64,000 bases of DNA from Escherichia coli. Lineage in GTDB: Bacteria > Pseudomonadota > Gammaproteobacteria > Enterobacterales > Enterobacteriaceae. Below the pieces are notes generated by a model. It had not been told where the DNA came from and did not search any database. It was given only the letters and a program-made list of their open reading frames with translations. The stretch lies in the NCBI RefSeq assembly GCF_009931435.1, contig NZ_CP043414.1; one strand, written 5' to 3'. This document shows positions 3,807-52,713 of the stretch, one piece after another (position 1 is the stretch's first letter; every line of letters starts with the position of its first letter). The position numbers and the translations under genes are program-made.

Positions 3807-4400
3807 ATGAAACTGATCGTCGGGATGACAGGGGCTACCGGTGCGCCTCTTGGTGTGGCATTACTGCAAGCGTTGCGCGAAATGCCGGATGTCGAGACTC
3901 ATCTGGTGATGTCGAAGTGGGCGAAAACCACTATTGAACTGGAAACGCCTTACAGCGCTCGCGATGTTGCCGCCCTCGCTGACTTCAGCCATAACCCGGC
4001 GGATCAGGCTGCGACCATCTCTTCCGGCTCCTTTCGTACCGACGGCATGATCGTTATTCCATGCAGTATGAAAACGCTCGCCGGTATCCGCGCTGGTTAC
4101 GCCGATGGTCTCGTAGGGCGCGCGGCGGACGTCGTGCTCAAAGAAGGCCGCAAACTGGTGCTGGTGCCGCGTGAAATGCCGCTTAGCACCATCCATCTCG
4201 AAAATATGCTCGCACTTTCGCGCATGGGCGTGGCGATGGTGCCGCCGATGCCTGCCTTTTATAACCATCCCGAAACGGTAGATGACATTGTCCACCACGT
4301 GGTAGCCCGCGTGCTGGATCAATTTGGCCTCGAACATCCTCACGCCAGGCGCTGGCAAGGGTTGCCGCAGGCCCGGAATTTTTCTCAGGAGAATGAATAA
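3807..4400 (+). CDS. ecdB: UbiX/Pad1-family flavin prenyltransferase (decarboxylase subunit B)
   Basis: 197-aa ORF MKLIVGMTGATGAPLGV..., flavoprotein fold typical of UbiX/Pad1; stop overlaps the next start (ATGA), indicating an operon. Confidence 0.75.
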   Translation: MKLIVGMTGATGAPLGVALLQALREMPDVETHLVMSKWAKTTIELETPYSARDVAALADFSHNPADQAATISSGSFRTDGMIVIPCSMKTLAGIRAGYADGLVGRAADVVLKEGRKLVLVPREMPLSTIHLENMLALSRMGVAMVPPMPAFYNHPETVDDIVHHVVARVLDQFGLEHPHARRWQGLPQARNFSQENE

Positions 4401-5827
4401 TGGCATTTGATGATTTACGCAGCTTCTTACAGGCGCTTGATGACCACGGCCAGTTACTGAAAATCAGCGAAGAGGTGAACGCGGAACCGGATCTGGCAGC
4501 CGCTGCCAACGCCACCGGGCGTATCGGCGACGGCGCGCCCGCGCTGTGGTTTGATAATATTCGCGGCTTTATCGATGCCCGCGTTGCAATGAACACCATC
4601 GGTTCCTGGCAGAACCACGCAATTTCTCTCGGTCTGCCGCCAAACACCCCGGTTAAAAAACAGATTGATGAGTTTATCCGCCGCTGGGATAACTTCCCGA
4701 TAGCCCCGGAGCGCCGTGCGAATCCTGCCTGGGCGCAGAACACCGTCGATGGCGACGAGATCAATTTGTTCAATATCCTGCCGCTGTTTCGTTTAAACGA
4801 TGGCGATGGCGGTTTCTATCTCGACAAAGCGTGCGTGGTTTCCCGCGATCCGCTCGATCCGGATAACTTCGGCAAGCAGAACGTCGGCATCTATCGCATG
4901 GAAGTGAAGGGTAAGCGTAAGCTCGGCCTGCAACCGGTGCCGATGCACGATATCGCCCTGCATCTGCATAAAGCGGAAGAACGTGGTGAAGATTTGCCAA
5001 TTGCCATCACGCTGGGTAACGATCCGATCATCACCCTGATGGGCGCCACCCCGCTGAAATATGATCAATCGGAGTACGAAATGGCGGGCGCGCTACGCGA
5101 AAGCCCGTACCCGATCGCCACCGCCCCGCTGACCGGTTTTGATGTGCCGTGGGGTTCAGAAGTGATCCTCGAAGGGGTTATCGAAAGCCGCAAACGTGAA
5201 ATCGAAGGGCCGTTCGGTGAGTTTACCGGGCACTACTCCGGTGGGCGCAACATGACCGTAGTGCGCATCGATAAAGTCTCTTACCGCACCAAACCGATTT
5301 TTGAATCGCTCTATCTCGGCATGCCGTGGACCGAAATCGACTACCTGATGGGGCCTGCCACCTGCGTGCCGCTTTACCAGCAGTTGAAAGCCGAGTTCCC
5401 GGAAGTGCAGGCGGTGAACGCTATGTACACCCACGGCCTGCTGGCGATTATCTCCACCAAAAAACGCTATGGCGGCTTTGCCCGCGCAGTGGGCCTGCGT
5501 GCGATGACCACGCCGCACGGTCTGGGTTATGTGAAGATGGTGATTATGGTCGATGAAGACGTTGACCCGTTCAACCTGCCGCAGGTGATGTGGGCGCTCT
5601 CTTCGAAAGTGAACCCGGCAGGGGATCTGGTGCAGTTGCCGAATATGTCAGTACTGGAACTCGACCCTGGCTCAAGCCCGGCGGGGATCACCGACAAGCT
5701 GATTATCGACGCCACTACGCCTGTCGCCCCGGACAACCGTGGTCACTACAGCCAGCCGGTGGTGGACTTACCGGAAACCAAAGCCTGGGCTGAAAAACTG
5801 ACCGCTATGCTGGCCGCACGTAAATAA
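4400..5827 (+). CDS. ecdC: UbiD-family reversible hydroxyarylic-acid decarboxylase (subunit C)
   Basis: 475-aa ORF; UbiD-like length and sequence; directly follows the UbiX-like gene. Confidence 0.75.
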   Translation: MAFDDLRSFLQALDDHGQLLKISEEVNAEPDLAAAANATGRIGDGAPALWFDNIRGFIDARVAMNTIGSWQNHAISLGLPPNTPVKKQIDEFIRRWDNFPIAPERRANPAWAQNTVDGDEINLFNILPLFRLNDGDGGFYLDKACVVSRDPLDPDNFGKQNVGIYRMEVKGKRKLGLQPVPMHDIALHLHKAEERGEDLPIAITLGNDPIITLMGATPLKYDQSEYEMAGALRESPYPIATAPLTGFDVPWGSEVILEGVIESRKREIEGPFGEFTGHYSGGRNMTVVRIDKVSYRTKPIFESLYLGMPWTEIDYLMGPATCVPLYQQLKAEFPEVQAVNAMYTHGLLAIISTKKRYGGFARAVGLRAMTTPHGLGYVKMVIMVDEDVDPFNLPQVMWALSSKVNPAGDLVQLPNMSVLELDPGSSPAGITDKLIIDATTPVAPDNRGHYSQPVVDLPETKAWAEKLTAMLAARK

Positions 5828-47753: not shown

Positions 47754-49291
<1,538 letters not shown>

Positions 49292-49528
49292 TTATTGTTT
49301 TATTACCAAACGGCAACCTAATCTAATCAGATTGAAAGATTTAAAAGTGTTATTTTGATCGCAAAATGAAAGATAAATATTTTAATTTGAAAGTTTATAT
49401 AAAAGGATAGTGAGGCGGATGAGTTGAGTTATGTAAAGTCCGTATCGGGCAGTGACTACCGCTTCCTTGTGCGGGGCGTGATGCTTTACCATACTTGCCC
49501 CTGGTTGAATCTGTTAAATGGACCCCTC

Positions 49529-50614
49529 ATGTTCAAGCGTCGTTATGTAACATTGCTTCCCCTTTTTGTGTTGCTTGCCGCCTGTAGCAGCAAGCCAAAA
49601 CCTACTGAGACTGAAACGACCACCGGAACGCCGTCTGGCGGCTTCCTGCTTGAGCCGCAGCACAATGTGATGCAGATGGGCGGCGATTTCGCTAACAACC
49701 CGAATGCCCAGCAGTTCATCGACAAAATGGTGAACAAACACGGTTTCAATCGTCAGCAGTTGCAGGAAATTCTCTCCCAGGCGAAACGTCTGGATTCGGT
49801 ATTGCGGCTGATGGATAACCAGGCACCAACCACATCGGTGAAGCCGCCATCAGGTCCGAACGGCGCATGGCTGCGTTATCGCAAAAAATTTATTACGCCG
49901 GACAACGTGCAAAACGGCGTGGTTTTCTGGAATCAGTATGAAGATGCGCTGAATCGCGCATGGCAAGTGTATGGCGTACCGCCAGAAATCATCGTCGGGA
50001 TTATCGGCGTCGAAACTCGCTGGGGACGCGTGATGGGGAAAACTCGTATCCTCGATGCGCTGGCAACGTTGTCATTTAACTACCCACGCCGCGCGGAGTA
50101 TTTCTCTGGTGAGCTGGAAACCTTCTTGCTGATGGCGCGCGATGAGCAGGACGATCCGCTCAATCTGAAAGGTTCCTTTGCCGGGGCGATGGGCTACGGA
50201 CAGTTTATGCCATCGTCTTATAAACAATATGCGGTAGATTTCAGCGGCGACGGGCATATCAACCTGTGGGATCCGGTTGATGCCATCGGTAGCGTGGCGA
50301 ACTATTTCAAAGCGCACGGCTGGGTGAAAGGTGATCAGGTTGCGGTAATGGCAAACGGTCAGGCTCCAGGCTTGCCAAATGGCTTCAAAACCAAGTACAG
50401 CATTTCGCAGCTTGCCGCGGCAGGTTTAACGCCACAGCAGCCGCTGGGCAACCATCAGCAGGCCAGCTTACTGCGCCTGGATGTTGGCACCGGTTACCAG
50501 TACTGGTACGGTTTGCCGAACTTCTACACTATCACCCGTTACAATCACAGCACCCATTACGCAATGGCCGTCTGGCAGTTAGGACAAGCCGTGGCACTGG
50601 CGCGCGTGCAGTAA
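49529..50614 (+). CDS. mltB: membrane-bound lytic murein transglycosylase B (lipoprotein)
   Basis: Start taken at MFKRRYVTLLPLFVLLAACSS (lipobox LAAC); catalytic region follows. Confidence 0.9.
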   Translation: MFKRRYVTLLPLFVLLAACSSKPKPTETETTTGTPSGGFLLEPQHNVMQMGGDFANNPNAQQFIDKMVNKHGFNRQQLQEILSQAKRLDSVLRLMDNQAPTTSVKPPSGPNGAWLRYRKKFITPDNVQNGVVFWNQYEDALNRAWQVYGVPPEIIVGIIGVETRWGRVMGKTRILDALATLSFNYPRRAEYFSGELETFLLMARDEQDDPLNLKGSFAGAMGYGQFMPSSYKQYAVDFSGDGHINLWDPVDAIGSVANYFKAHGWVKGDQVAVMANGQAPGLPNGFKTKYSISQLAAAGLTPQQPLGNHQQASLLRLDVGTGYQYWYGLPNFYTITRYNHSTHYAMAVWQLGQAVALARVQ

Positions 50615-50617
50615 CTC

Positions 50618-50650
50618 TTTGCAAGAGGGAGGTTAAACTTCCCTCTGTTT
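50618..50650. terminator. hairpin terminator between convergent mltB and the small ORF
   Basis: agaggga…tccctct stem followed by gttttctt. Confidence 0.55.
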
Positions 50651-50652
50651 TC

Positions 50653-50892
50653 TTACTGTTTATTCGAATGACGTAATTGCTTGATTTTTTTCGACAGCGA
50701 TATCGCATATCCCAGGCAGACAACGCCTAACGCAGCCTGACCGAAGTCGAAAGGTTCAAGGTAGCCAGAAGATAAAATTTTACATATCACTGAAACCAGT
50801 GCGCCGATGCCACCAATGATGACCCAAATACGCATTTGCGTGGTTTGTTTAAGCACGTTTTGTGGCGTGTTATCCGTTTTCTTTGTTGCCAT
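50653..50892 (-). CDS. hypothetical small two-helix membrane protein (79 aa)
   Basis: In-frame ATG at 50890-50892 preceded by GGGAGAG; translation MATKKTDNTPQNVLKQTTQMRIWVIIGGIGALVSVICKIL…ALGVVCLGYAISLSKKIKQLRHSNKQ has two hydrophobic helices and a basic tail. No K-12 gene is annotated here in my recollection. Confidence 0.4.
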   Translation of the reverse strand: MATKKTDNTPQNVLKQTTQMRIWVIIGGIGALVSVICKILSSGYLEPFDFGQAALGVVCLGYAISLSKKIKQLRHSNKQ

Positions 50893-51071
50893 TGCTATTC
50901 TCTCCCTGTGAATACATATCAATGTGAACGCGGCATGGTAGCGCTTTTTCTTTACCGACTGGTCGCAACAGTCTTTTTCCGGAACGCAACTCGTAAAATG
51001 AATCGCTCGTCCCCATCTTCTGCGGGAAAGTGCTATCTTGTCCGGCATATATTTTTTGACTGACTGAGGTT

Positions 51072-51572
51072 GTGATGATTGACAGTGAACTGATGCAGTT
51101 AAGCGAACAGGTAGGGCAGGCGCTGAAAGCCCGTGGCGCAACCGTAACAACTGCCGAGTCTTGTACCGGCGGTTGGGTAGCGAAAGTGATTACCGATATT
51201 GCCGGTAGTTCCGCCTGGTTTGAACGCGGATTTGTCACCTACAGTAACGAAGCCAAAGCGCAGATGATCGGCGTACGCGAAGAGACGCTGGCGCAGCACG
51301 GCGCGGTGAGCGAACCCGTCGTGGTGGAAATGGCGATAGGCGCACTGAAAGCGGCTCGTGCTGATTATGCCGTGTCTATTAGTGGTATCGCCGGGCCGGA
51401 TGGCGGCAGTGAAGAGAAGCCTGTTGGCACCGTCTGGTTTGCTTTTGCCACTGCCCGTGGAGAAGGCATTACCCGGCGGGAATGCTTCAGCGGTGACCGT
51501 GATGCGGTGCGTCGTCAGGCTACTGCGTATGCATTGCAGACCTTGTGGCAACAATTTCTACAAAACACTTGA
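51072..51572 (+). CDS. pncC: NMN amidohydrolase PncC (CinA-like)
   Basis: 166-aa ORF …ATVTTAESCTGGWVAKVITDIAGSS…; immediately upstream of recA. Confidence 0.92.
   Translation: MMIDSELMQLSEQVGQALKARGATVTTAESCTGGWVAKVITDIAGSSAWFERGFVTYSNEAKAQMIGVREETLAQHGAVSEPVVVEMAIGALKAARADYAVSISGIAGPDGGSEEKPVGTVWFAFATARGEGITRRECFSGDRDAVRRQATAYALQTLWQQFLQNT

Positions 51573-52713
<1,141 letters not shown>

Follow-up and report, generated by a model that had tools for sequence, protein, structure and literature searches.

A conserved gene for a predicted two-helix inner-membrane protein between mltB and pncC that is missing from K-12-type Escherichia coli

The closest described relative of the gene considered here is STsORF92, an 81-aa candidate small ORF of Salmonella Typhimurium SL1344 located at 2999268-2999513 (Venturini 2020, microLife; PMC10117436, Tables S1 and S2). 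It was predicted by sPepFinder only, carries the authors' remark "independent; no tss, low transcription," and is recorded as conserved in 14028s with no MG1655 counterpart (PMC10117436). Ribo-seq in LB, SPI-1, and SPI-2 conditions did not call it, HeLa dual RNA-seq gave logFC values from −0.88 to 0.08 (FDR > 0.6), macrophage TraDIS gave a log2FC of 0.01 (FDR 1), and it is not among the 17 candidates validated by western blot (PMC10117436). We did not find STsORF92 in the supplements of Baek et al. 2017, and a literature search on the Escherichia and Salmonella gene found nothing beyond the Venturini supplement.

Three better characterized groups of small membrane proteins offer further points of comparison. 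MgrB, AcrZ, and MgtS, paired with PhoQ, AcrB, and MgtA, respectively, are short, independently transcribed, condition-specific, and dispensable membrane proteins, mostly with a single transmembrane (TM) helix and with a known partner and signal. Type I toxins are usually shorter than 60 aa, consist of a single helix, have an antisense RNA encoded in cis or nearby, and are often multi-copy or mobile. Class II holins and pinholins, such as the product of gene S in the lambdoid phage 21, are small proteins with two TM segments, an N-in/C-in topology, and a basic, charged C-terminus.

We analyzed a 64,000-nt stretch of an E. coli genome, referred to below as the window. Its assignment to E. coli is borne out over 20 kb, where all 5,424 best matches have 95% to 99% identity and the closest has 98.6%. 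The small ORF lies on its minus strand at 50653-50892 and comprises 79 codons plus TAA, with the ATG at 50892 and the stop at 50655-50653. The 79-aa product, a predicted two-helix inner-membrane protein, is MATKKTDNTPQNVLKQTTQMRIWVIIGGIGALVSVICKILSSGYLEPFDFGQAALGVVCLGYAISLSKKIKQLRHSNKQ. The initial annotation had picked out this minus-strand frame between mltB and pncC together with a Shine-Dalgarno-like GGGAGAG, and both are where it had put them, the latter at 50900-50906 (minus strand), 7 nt 5' of the ATG. At the equivalent site, Salmonella, Citrobacter, and a Pseudocitrobacter-like genus have GGAGAG, GAAGAG, or GAGAAGG. In a mechanical list of ORFs, the small ORF makes up the 3' portion of a longer frame of 165 aa that starts with TTG. 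The ATG at 50892 is fixed as the conserved start by in-frame stops upstream of it in E. marmotae, Salmonella, the two Citrobacter species, and the Pseudocitrobacter-like genus.

The surrounding order is that of the core chromosome, srl-mltB-ORF-pncC-recA-recX-alaS. On the plus strand, mltB (49529-50614) converges on the small ORF and pncC, which starts at 51075, diverges from it. The small ORF is transcribed apart from both neighbors, and the neighborhood gives no hint of a partner, a point that we count against our main reading. As had been observed at the outset, a hairpin separates the convergent genes; it has a 10-bp stem and spans 50624-50646. On the plus strand, it folds at −15.4 kcal/mol (z = −3.0; 0 of 200 shuffles fold as well) and is then followed by GTTTTCTT. 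The minus-strand fold, at −10.8 kcal/mol (z = −1.6), is less stable and lacks a U-tail, and the hairpin is therefore mainly the intrinsic terminator of mltB. Salmonella, Citrobacter, and the Pseudocitrobacter-like genus have a hairpin of different sequence in the equivalent place.

Our main reading is that the ORF is a genuine, already annotated gene for a 79-aa membrane hairpin, conserved in evolution, lost from most E. coli, expressed conditionally, dispensable, and acting by binding a partner. We give this statement as a whole a probability of roughly 0.6. Its parts differ in strength, and we are highly confident of the most basic one, namely that the ORF is a real membrane-protein gene whose product inserts as a hairpin.

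The coding evidence comes from comparison of eight Escherichia lineages: E. coli (two alleles), E. albertii, E. whittamii, E. fergusonii, E. marmotae, and two further Escherichia lineages. Exactly 79 codons are open in all eight, and this frame is the only open one of the six, with one to five stops in each of the others. Of the variable sites, 10, 5, and 23 are at the first, second, and third codon position, respectively (chi-square P = 0.001). Pairwise dN/dS ranges from 0.08 to 0.29 with a mean of 0.18, which is clear purifying selection. Between Salmonella and Citrobacter orthologs, dN/dS is 0.20 to 0.25 at a dS of ~1.0 to 1.2. From Escherichia to Salmonella or Citrobacter, synonymous sites are saturated (pS 0.76 to 0.80, pN 0.32 to 0.38), and the protein motifs persist.

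The check that the initial annotation had proposed, conservation of the frame and of synonymous sites across Enterobacteriaceae, thus came out positive (mean dN/dS 0.18; 10/5/23). It had also named two observations that would speak against a gene, loss of the frame in related genomes and lack of ribosome footprints. The frame is conserved, and the missing Ribo-seq call for the Salmonella ortholog in three laboratory conditions goes the other way. Conservation of the reading frame argues strongly that translation occurs under some condition.

The gene is not new to the databases. In all RefSeq genomes with the ORF that we inspected, the PGAP annotation already has a "hypothetical protein" covering exactly these 240 nt, and UniProt and RefSeq hold many entries for the family. 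The window ORF and WP_032184982.1 (strain 2020CK-00188) have the same coding DNA, the allele of ST131 is WP_000985460.1 (94% identical), and the Salmonella counterpart in RefSeq is WP_001519391.1, also a "hypothetical protein." These three records give no functional information and have no Pfam or NCBIfam family assigned. Across the family, entries are named "hypothetical protein," "membrane protein," and once, for the E. whittamii copy in UniProt, "Holin." The proposal of an unannotated small membrane gene therefore survives in its second half only: the gene is genuine, and it had not been missed, as PGAP annotates it and STsORF92 has been published. It is an ordinary, uncharacterized gene that is already annotated and catalogued.

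A word-indexed search returned Escherichia proteins only, at 72% identity or more. An exhaustive profile search and a second one added members from Citrobacter (C. amalonaticus, C. telavivensis, and other Citrobacter), Salmonella enterica (subspecies enterica, including Typhi, salamae, and indica), a Pseudocitrobacter-like genus, recognized through its MltB cluster, and Affinibrenneria salicis. Profile E-values were 1e-28 to 1e-36 for the Salmonella, Citrobacter, and Pseudocitrobacter-like members and 2e-27 for Affinibrenneria, at coverages of 81 to 99%. Several Salmonella sequence variants each occur on at least 1,000 contigs. Judged from these sequences, this is a narrow Enterobacteriaceae family of Escherichia, Salmonella, Citrobacter, and the Pseudocitrobacter-like genus, plus the Affinibrenneria copy.

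We examined synteny in the window, E. coli ST131, E. albertii, E. whittamii, E. fergusonii, and E. marmotae, and outside Escherichia in C. amalonaticus, a C. telavivensis-like contig, S. Senftenberg, and the Pseudocitrobacter-like genus. All of these Enterobacteriaceae members have it in one arrangement, divergent from pncC (CinA domain) and on the mltB side, which argues that it is ancestral to the Escherichia-Salmonella-Citrobacter group. In the Pseudocitrobacter-like genus, a ZnuA-type ABC-transporter operon lies between the small gene and mltB. The Affinibrenneria copy is the sole non-syntenic member.

STsORF92, whose sequence is identical to that of the S. Senftenberg copy used in our comparisons, is the ortholog of the Escherichia gene. 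The two proteins are 51 to 53% identical, have the motifs LKQ..QLR.W.I.GG, GY.EPYD.GQ, and LG.GCLGY in common, and have the same predicted two-helix topology, and both genes diverge from pncC and converge on mltB. Their sequences have nonetheless diverged, and STsORF92 contributes cataloguing rather than a mechanism.

The initial annotation had known of no named K-12 gene here, and rightly so: the mltB-pncC spacer is 144 bp in K-12 MG1655 and in a B strain, with no annotated gene, and tblastn found no trace of the small protein in either spacer. By pairwise alignment, K-12- and B-type E. coli are missing a ~324-bp segment, 50648-50971 of the window, and have ~8 nt in its place. The segment comprises the small ORF, its ribosome-binding site (RBS), and ~79 nt upstream. 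What failed was the implicit use of K-12 as the reference, as the window is not K-12-like here and K-12 lacks the segment. The same deletion in K-12-type genomes explains why STsORF92 has no MG1655 counterpart.

About 573 of 5,426 complete E. coli genomes carry the segment, counted as genomes covering at least 80% of a 561-nt query, and ~90% do not. Seven of the 573 match at 99% or more, and most others, ST131 included, match at ~94.7 to 94.8%. Carriers have a median of one copy per genome, always on the chromosome. Since presence is ancestral in the Escherichia-Salmonella-Citrobacter group, the K-12 state is, by this comparative argument, a deletion, and the gene descended vertically before most E. 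coli lost it.

Within E. coli, the gene lies on short mosaic tracts. ST131 is close to E. albertii over the 3' half of mltB (98.7% identity), the ORF (99.6%), and the ORF-proximal spacer (98.9%). The 5' half of its mltB is 98.7% identical to that of E. coli B, and its pncC is only 92.6% identical to that of E. albertii. In the window, the ORF and the spacer are instead close to E. fergusonii, with 98.8% and 100% identity, respectively. This pattern of identities points to inter-species recombination. Import into E. coli seems the likelier direction because most E. coli have no segment.

Beyond the published record, this analysis connects the Escherichia gene with STsORF92, defines the family by its members, synteny, topology, selection, and conserved motifs, and describes both the deletion in K-12 and the mosaic origin of the E. 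coli copies. The importance is modest. The case illustrates how an accessory gene that is ordinary and already annotated can pass for a discovery when K-12 is taken as the standard. Should a function be found, it would be that of a protein of ST131, of the non-coli Escherichia lineages examined, and of most Salmonella that is missing from the laboratory model strain.

A consensus sigma-70 scan of the small-ORF locus found no promoter. By inspection, TACCAT at 50935-50940 (minus strand), 42 nt 5' of the ATG, is a candidate −10 hexamer, and TACCAT, TATGAT, TAGAGT, or CATAAT lies 34 to 41 nt 5' of the ATG in other genera. No −35 element is recognizable. An informal check by eye upstream of the small ORF revealed neither a LexA box (CTGT-N8-ACAG) nor a CpxR repeat, nor any signature of sigma-E, sigma-54, or sigma-S kept across genera. 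Given the missing −35 element and the remark on low transcription and no TSS for the Salmonella ortholog, the promoter would be weak and probably activator-dependent, and expression would be conditional.

Kyte-Doolittle analysis of the window protein shows two hydrophobic segments between K/R-rich N- and C-tails, with an acidic loop, E-P-F-D. The two helices and the basic C-terminus had been predicted from the start, and the N-tail proves to be basic as well. All five genera have this layout, with basic tails around two hydrophobic segments and a short loop that is acidic or neutral, so by the positive-inside rule, we predict an N-in/C-in topology with cytoplasmic tails and a periplasmic loop. 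AlphaFold2, run on a 13-sequence alignment, models a helical hairpin (H10-42 and H47-78; pLDDT 69, pTM 0.34). Topology and fold are both predictions, held with moderate confidence at this pLDDT. Mean identity between genera is 49% in the juxtamembrane segment (LKQ..Q.R.W) and 52% in TM2 (LG.GC..Y), compared with 29 to 30% in the tails, and the helices are glycine-rich, with GG in TM1 and LG.GC..Y in TM2. We infer that this pattern fits specific packing against another helix or a partner better than bulk hydrophobicity.

Searches of Pfam and NCBIfam gave no family match to the small protein, a sequence profile search of the PDB gave none, and PADLOC defense models gave none for five diverse members at E ≤ 1. 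In viral and PDB structure libraries, Foldseek found generic helical hairpins but nothing at E ≤ 0.001. The only Pfam or NCBIfam hit, to the bilobed-hydrophobic IncE family (16.5 bits against a cut-off of 27 bits), was treated as similarity in architecture or composition, not homology. Linkage to pncC had suggested a PnuC-like protein (NMN_transporter); matches to PHROG 1880 reached 13.5 bits (E ~0.08) in Escherichia members only, with no Pfam match, and we rejected this lead too. PnuC has a multi-helix fold, for which a two-helix protein is too short.

Of the described functional classes, that of small regulatory inner-membrane proteins appears to be the most likely by analogy. The gene resembles mgrB, acrZ, and mgtS in encoding a short, independently transcribed, apparently condition-specific, and dispensable membrane protein. 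It has no sequence relationship to them, and they differ in having mostly one TM helix and a known partner and signal. MgrB is discussed in PMC10117436. Like the type I toxins Hok, TisB, Ldr, and Ibs, the protein is small and hydrophobic, and its presence varies among strains. Unlike them, it has 79 aa and two helices and is encoded by a single-copy gene with stable synteny across four genera. Rfam shows no catalogued antisense RNA family in 49200-51700, and insertions in STsORF92 had no fitness effect in macrophage TraDIS (PMC10117436).

We propose the following mechanism. A weak, probably activator-dependent promoter would restrict synthesis of the small protein to particular conditions. The protein would insert in the inner membrane as an N-in/C-in helical hairpin and bind and modulate a larger inner-membrane protein, possibly contacting it through the juxtamembrane LKQ..Q.R.W segment and the glycine-rich helices (GG in TM1, LG.GC..Y in TM2). 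Under ordinary growth, it would be dispensable. Dispensability and conditional expression are likely, given the Salmonella data and the loss from ~90% of E. coli. Action on a larger membrane protein is our most tentative step, somewhat short of an even bet, with the conservation pattern and analogy as its basis.

The same observations could describe a decaying relic, a formerly functional frame, still intact in some lineages, that is functionless in E. coli and persists there as a by-product of recombination tracts spanning mltB. Such decay would suit the absence of the segment from ~90% of complete E. coli genomes, the low transcription and lack of fitness effect of the Salmonella ortholog (PMC10117436), and the location of the E. 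coli gene on imported tracts, which extend over the 3' half of mltB as well. It would also suit the pattern of selection, as dN/dS for the same genome pairs is 0.05 in pncC, 0.02 in mltB, and 0.01 in recA, and the small ORF lies 4- to 18-fold above them; selection is several-fold more relaxed than on the neighbors in a gene that is often lost, which we count against our main reading. Broken alleles exist as well: an A7 homopolymer at 50685-50691 (minus strand; codons K68-K69-I70) has A6 and A8 alleles in public databases that lead to frameshifted C-termini, and truncated or frameshifted Salmonella versions are also present there. Intact alleles greatly outnumber the frameshifted ones, however, with intact variants on hundreds to at least 1,000 contigs and frameshifted ones mostly on few, up to 12 (the E. 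marmotae A8 allele). The dN/dS value, 0.18, is far from 1, the different genera have kept the RBS, and the frame has remained open without a change in length despite saturated synonymous sites, so we regard decay as unlikely. Even less can be said for a purely non-coding feature, in which conservation would reflect a role as a 3' region of mltB or as an RNA, antisense or small, with an open frame that is only incidental. The absence of a Ribo-seq call for STsORF92 (PMC10117436) would fit it, as would an ORF dS of 0.19, somewhat below those of pncC (0.31) and mltB (0.38). That dS equals the value for recA (0.19), rests on only ~55 synonymous sites, and falls within the neighbors' range of 0.19 to 0.38, giving no clear signal of overlapping non-coding constraint. 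The three-base periodicity of substitutions lies in exactly this frame, the sole open one, amino-acid motifs persist where the DNA is saturated, and an Rfam scan of 49200-51700 found no RNA family at E ≤ 1, which together make this explanation very improbable.

A chromosomal holin-like protein, which would oligomerize and permeabilize the inner membrane, possibly together with the murein hydrolase MltB, is the remaining alternative. The class II holin architecture is there by prediction, in ~80 aa with two TM segments, an N-in/C-in topology, and a basic, charged C-terminus; mltB is adjacent, the E. whittamii entry is named "Holin," and the PHROG holin family phrog_1129 gave a borderline match (E = 0.001, 20 bits). 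That match is confined to six near-identical Escherichia sequences (E 0.001 to 0.11), with none for the Salmonella, Citrobacter, Pseudocitrobacter-like, or Affinibrenneria members, and Pfam holin families matched none of 13 members at E ≤ 10. The phage database holds no homolog besides two Salmonella contigs in UNVERIFIED_ORG records, which we rejected as chromosomal contamination, and Foldseek found nothing among viral structures at E ≤ 0.001. The locus also differs from a holin gene in its setting, having no lysis cassette, no co-transcribed endolysin, and no family-wide similarity in sequence or fold to holins, and it has a single conserved start, the possible second start of a holin-type dual start, M20, being Leu in Salmonella, Citrobacter, and the Pseudocitrobacter-like genus. 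With no support from diverged members and no phage context, we rejected membership in a holin family. As for cooperation with MltB, the small ORF converges on mltB across a terminator rather than forming an operon with it, and the linkage is broken in the Pseudocitrobacter-like genus. MltB is an outer-membrane lipoprotein. An export signal of its own is visible at the N-terminus of its translation, and a holin is therefore not required. We consider pore formation improbable, and we retain the reading of a conditionally expressed membrane hairpin that binds a partner.

A bolder extension of this reading is that the gene encodes a regulator, induced under certain conditions, of some inner-membrane process now lost from K-12, with a functional tie to NAD salvage through the divergently transcribed pncC or to peptidoglycan turnover through MltB. 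Its re-import on E. albertii-like tracts into successful E. coli lineages, ST131 among them, would then reflect selection for that function, not hitch-hiking. We regard this as a speculative idea with long odds against it.

The pncC-proximal half of the divergent intergenic region (50972-51071) contains blocks that are invariant across five genera, and it is kept in K-12. It probably holds the pncC promoter, for which TGCTATCTT at 51031-51039 (plus strand) is a candidate extended −10.

Positions 50072-51071 of the window form an inter-species mosaic. In ST131, the E. coli lineage carrying the WP_000985460.1 allele of the small ORF (50653-50892, minus strand), a tract made up of the 3' half of mltB, the small ORF, and the spacer that separates it from pncC is 98.7-99.6% identical to E. 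albertii, and the flanks of this tract resemble ordinary E. coli. The small ORF and spacer of the window itself are 98.8-100% identical to those of E. fergusonii. Homologous recombination appears to have brought the small gene back into E. coli on two or more occasions.

Genes beyond mltB, on the side away from the small ORF, differ between genomes. The srl (glucitol PTS) operon adjoins mltB in the window, and this operon could not be aligned in E. albertii. In place of srl, E. fergusonii carries a SIS-domain gene, a sigma-54 activator, and a 54-aa ORF. In the Pseudocitrobacter-like genus, a ZnuA-type ABC-transporter operon has been inserted, with mltB on one side of it and the small ORF on the other.

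The pncC-proximal half of the spacer (50972-51071) contains blocks that are unchanged in an alignment of five genera and are also present in K-12; on the minus strand, these invariant blocks read AAGATAGCACTTTC, GATGGGGA, ATTTTACGAG, and ATTCCGAAAAA. On the plus strand, TGCTATCTT (51031-51039) resembles an extended -10 element and is a candidate for that of pncC. The blocks in this half of the spacer include CTCGTAAAAT and CCCCATC.

Near its 3' end, the small ORF contains an A7 homopolymer (50685-50691, minus strand; codons 68-70). Among the alleles in public databases, some have an A6 tract, with the C-terminus ...SKKSSNYAIRINSK... and a frame that continues through the hairpin (50624-50646) into antisense mltB, and others have an A8 tract and end in ...SKKNQAIT, for example E. 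marmotae WP_233461546.1, found on 12 contigs. The A6 and A8 alleles could reflect either genuine variation in tract length or sequencing errors at the homopolymer.

The copy in Affinibrenneria salicis (4339-4575 of its locus) is the sole non-syntenic member of the family. It is directly followed on the same strand by a second small ORF of 78 aa, which has no Pfam match.

Two INPHARED records of 1.9 kb each (OR845620.1 and OR845594.1), named "Escherichia phage ECO95 1-6-1," flagged UNVERIFIED_ORG, and sequenced at ~2x coverage, carry mltB in one and pncC-recA in the other, with 99.3% and 96.9% identity to S. Senftenberg. We rejected them as phage genes and regard them as contaminating fragments of a Salmonella chromosome. 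PLSDB lists the 727,905-bp record NZ_LN868944.1 from S. Senftenberg NCTC10384 as "plasmid 2"; this record, with the gene content alaS-recX-recA-pncC-mltB-srlAEBD, is a chromosomal segment filed under plasmids.
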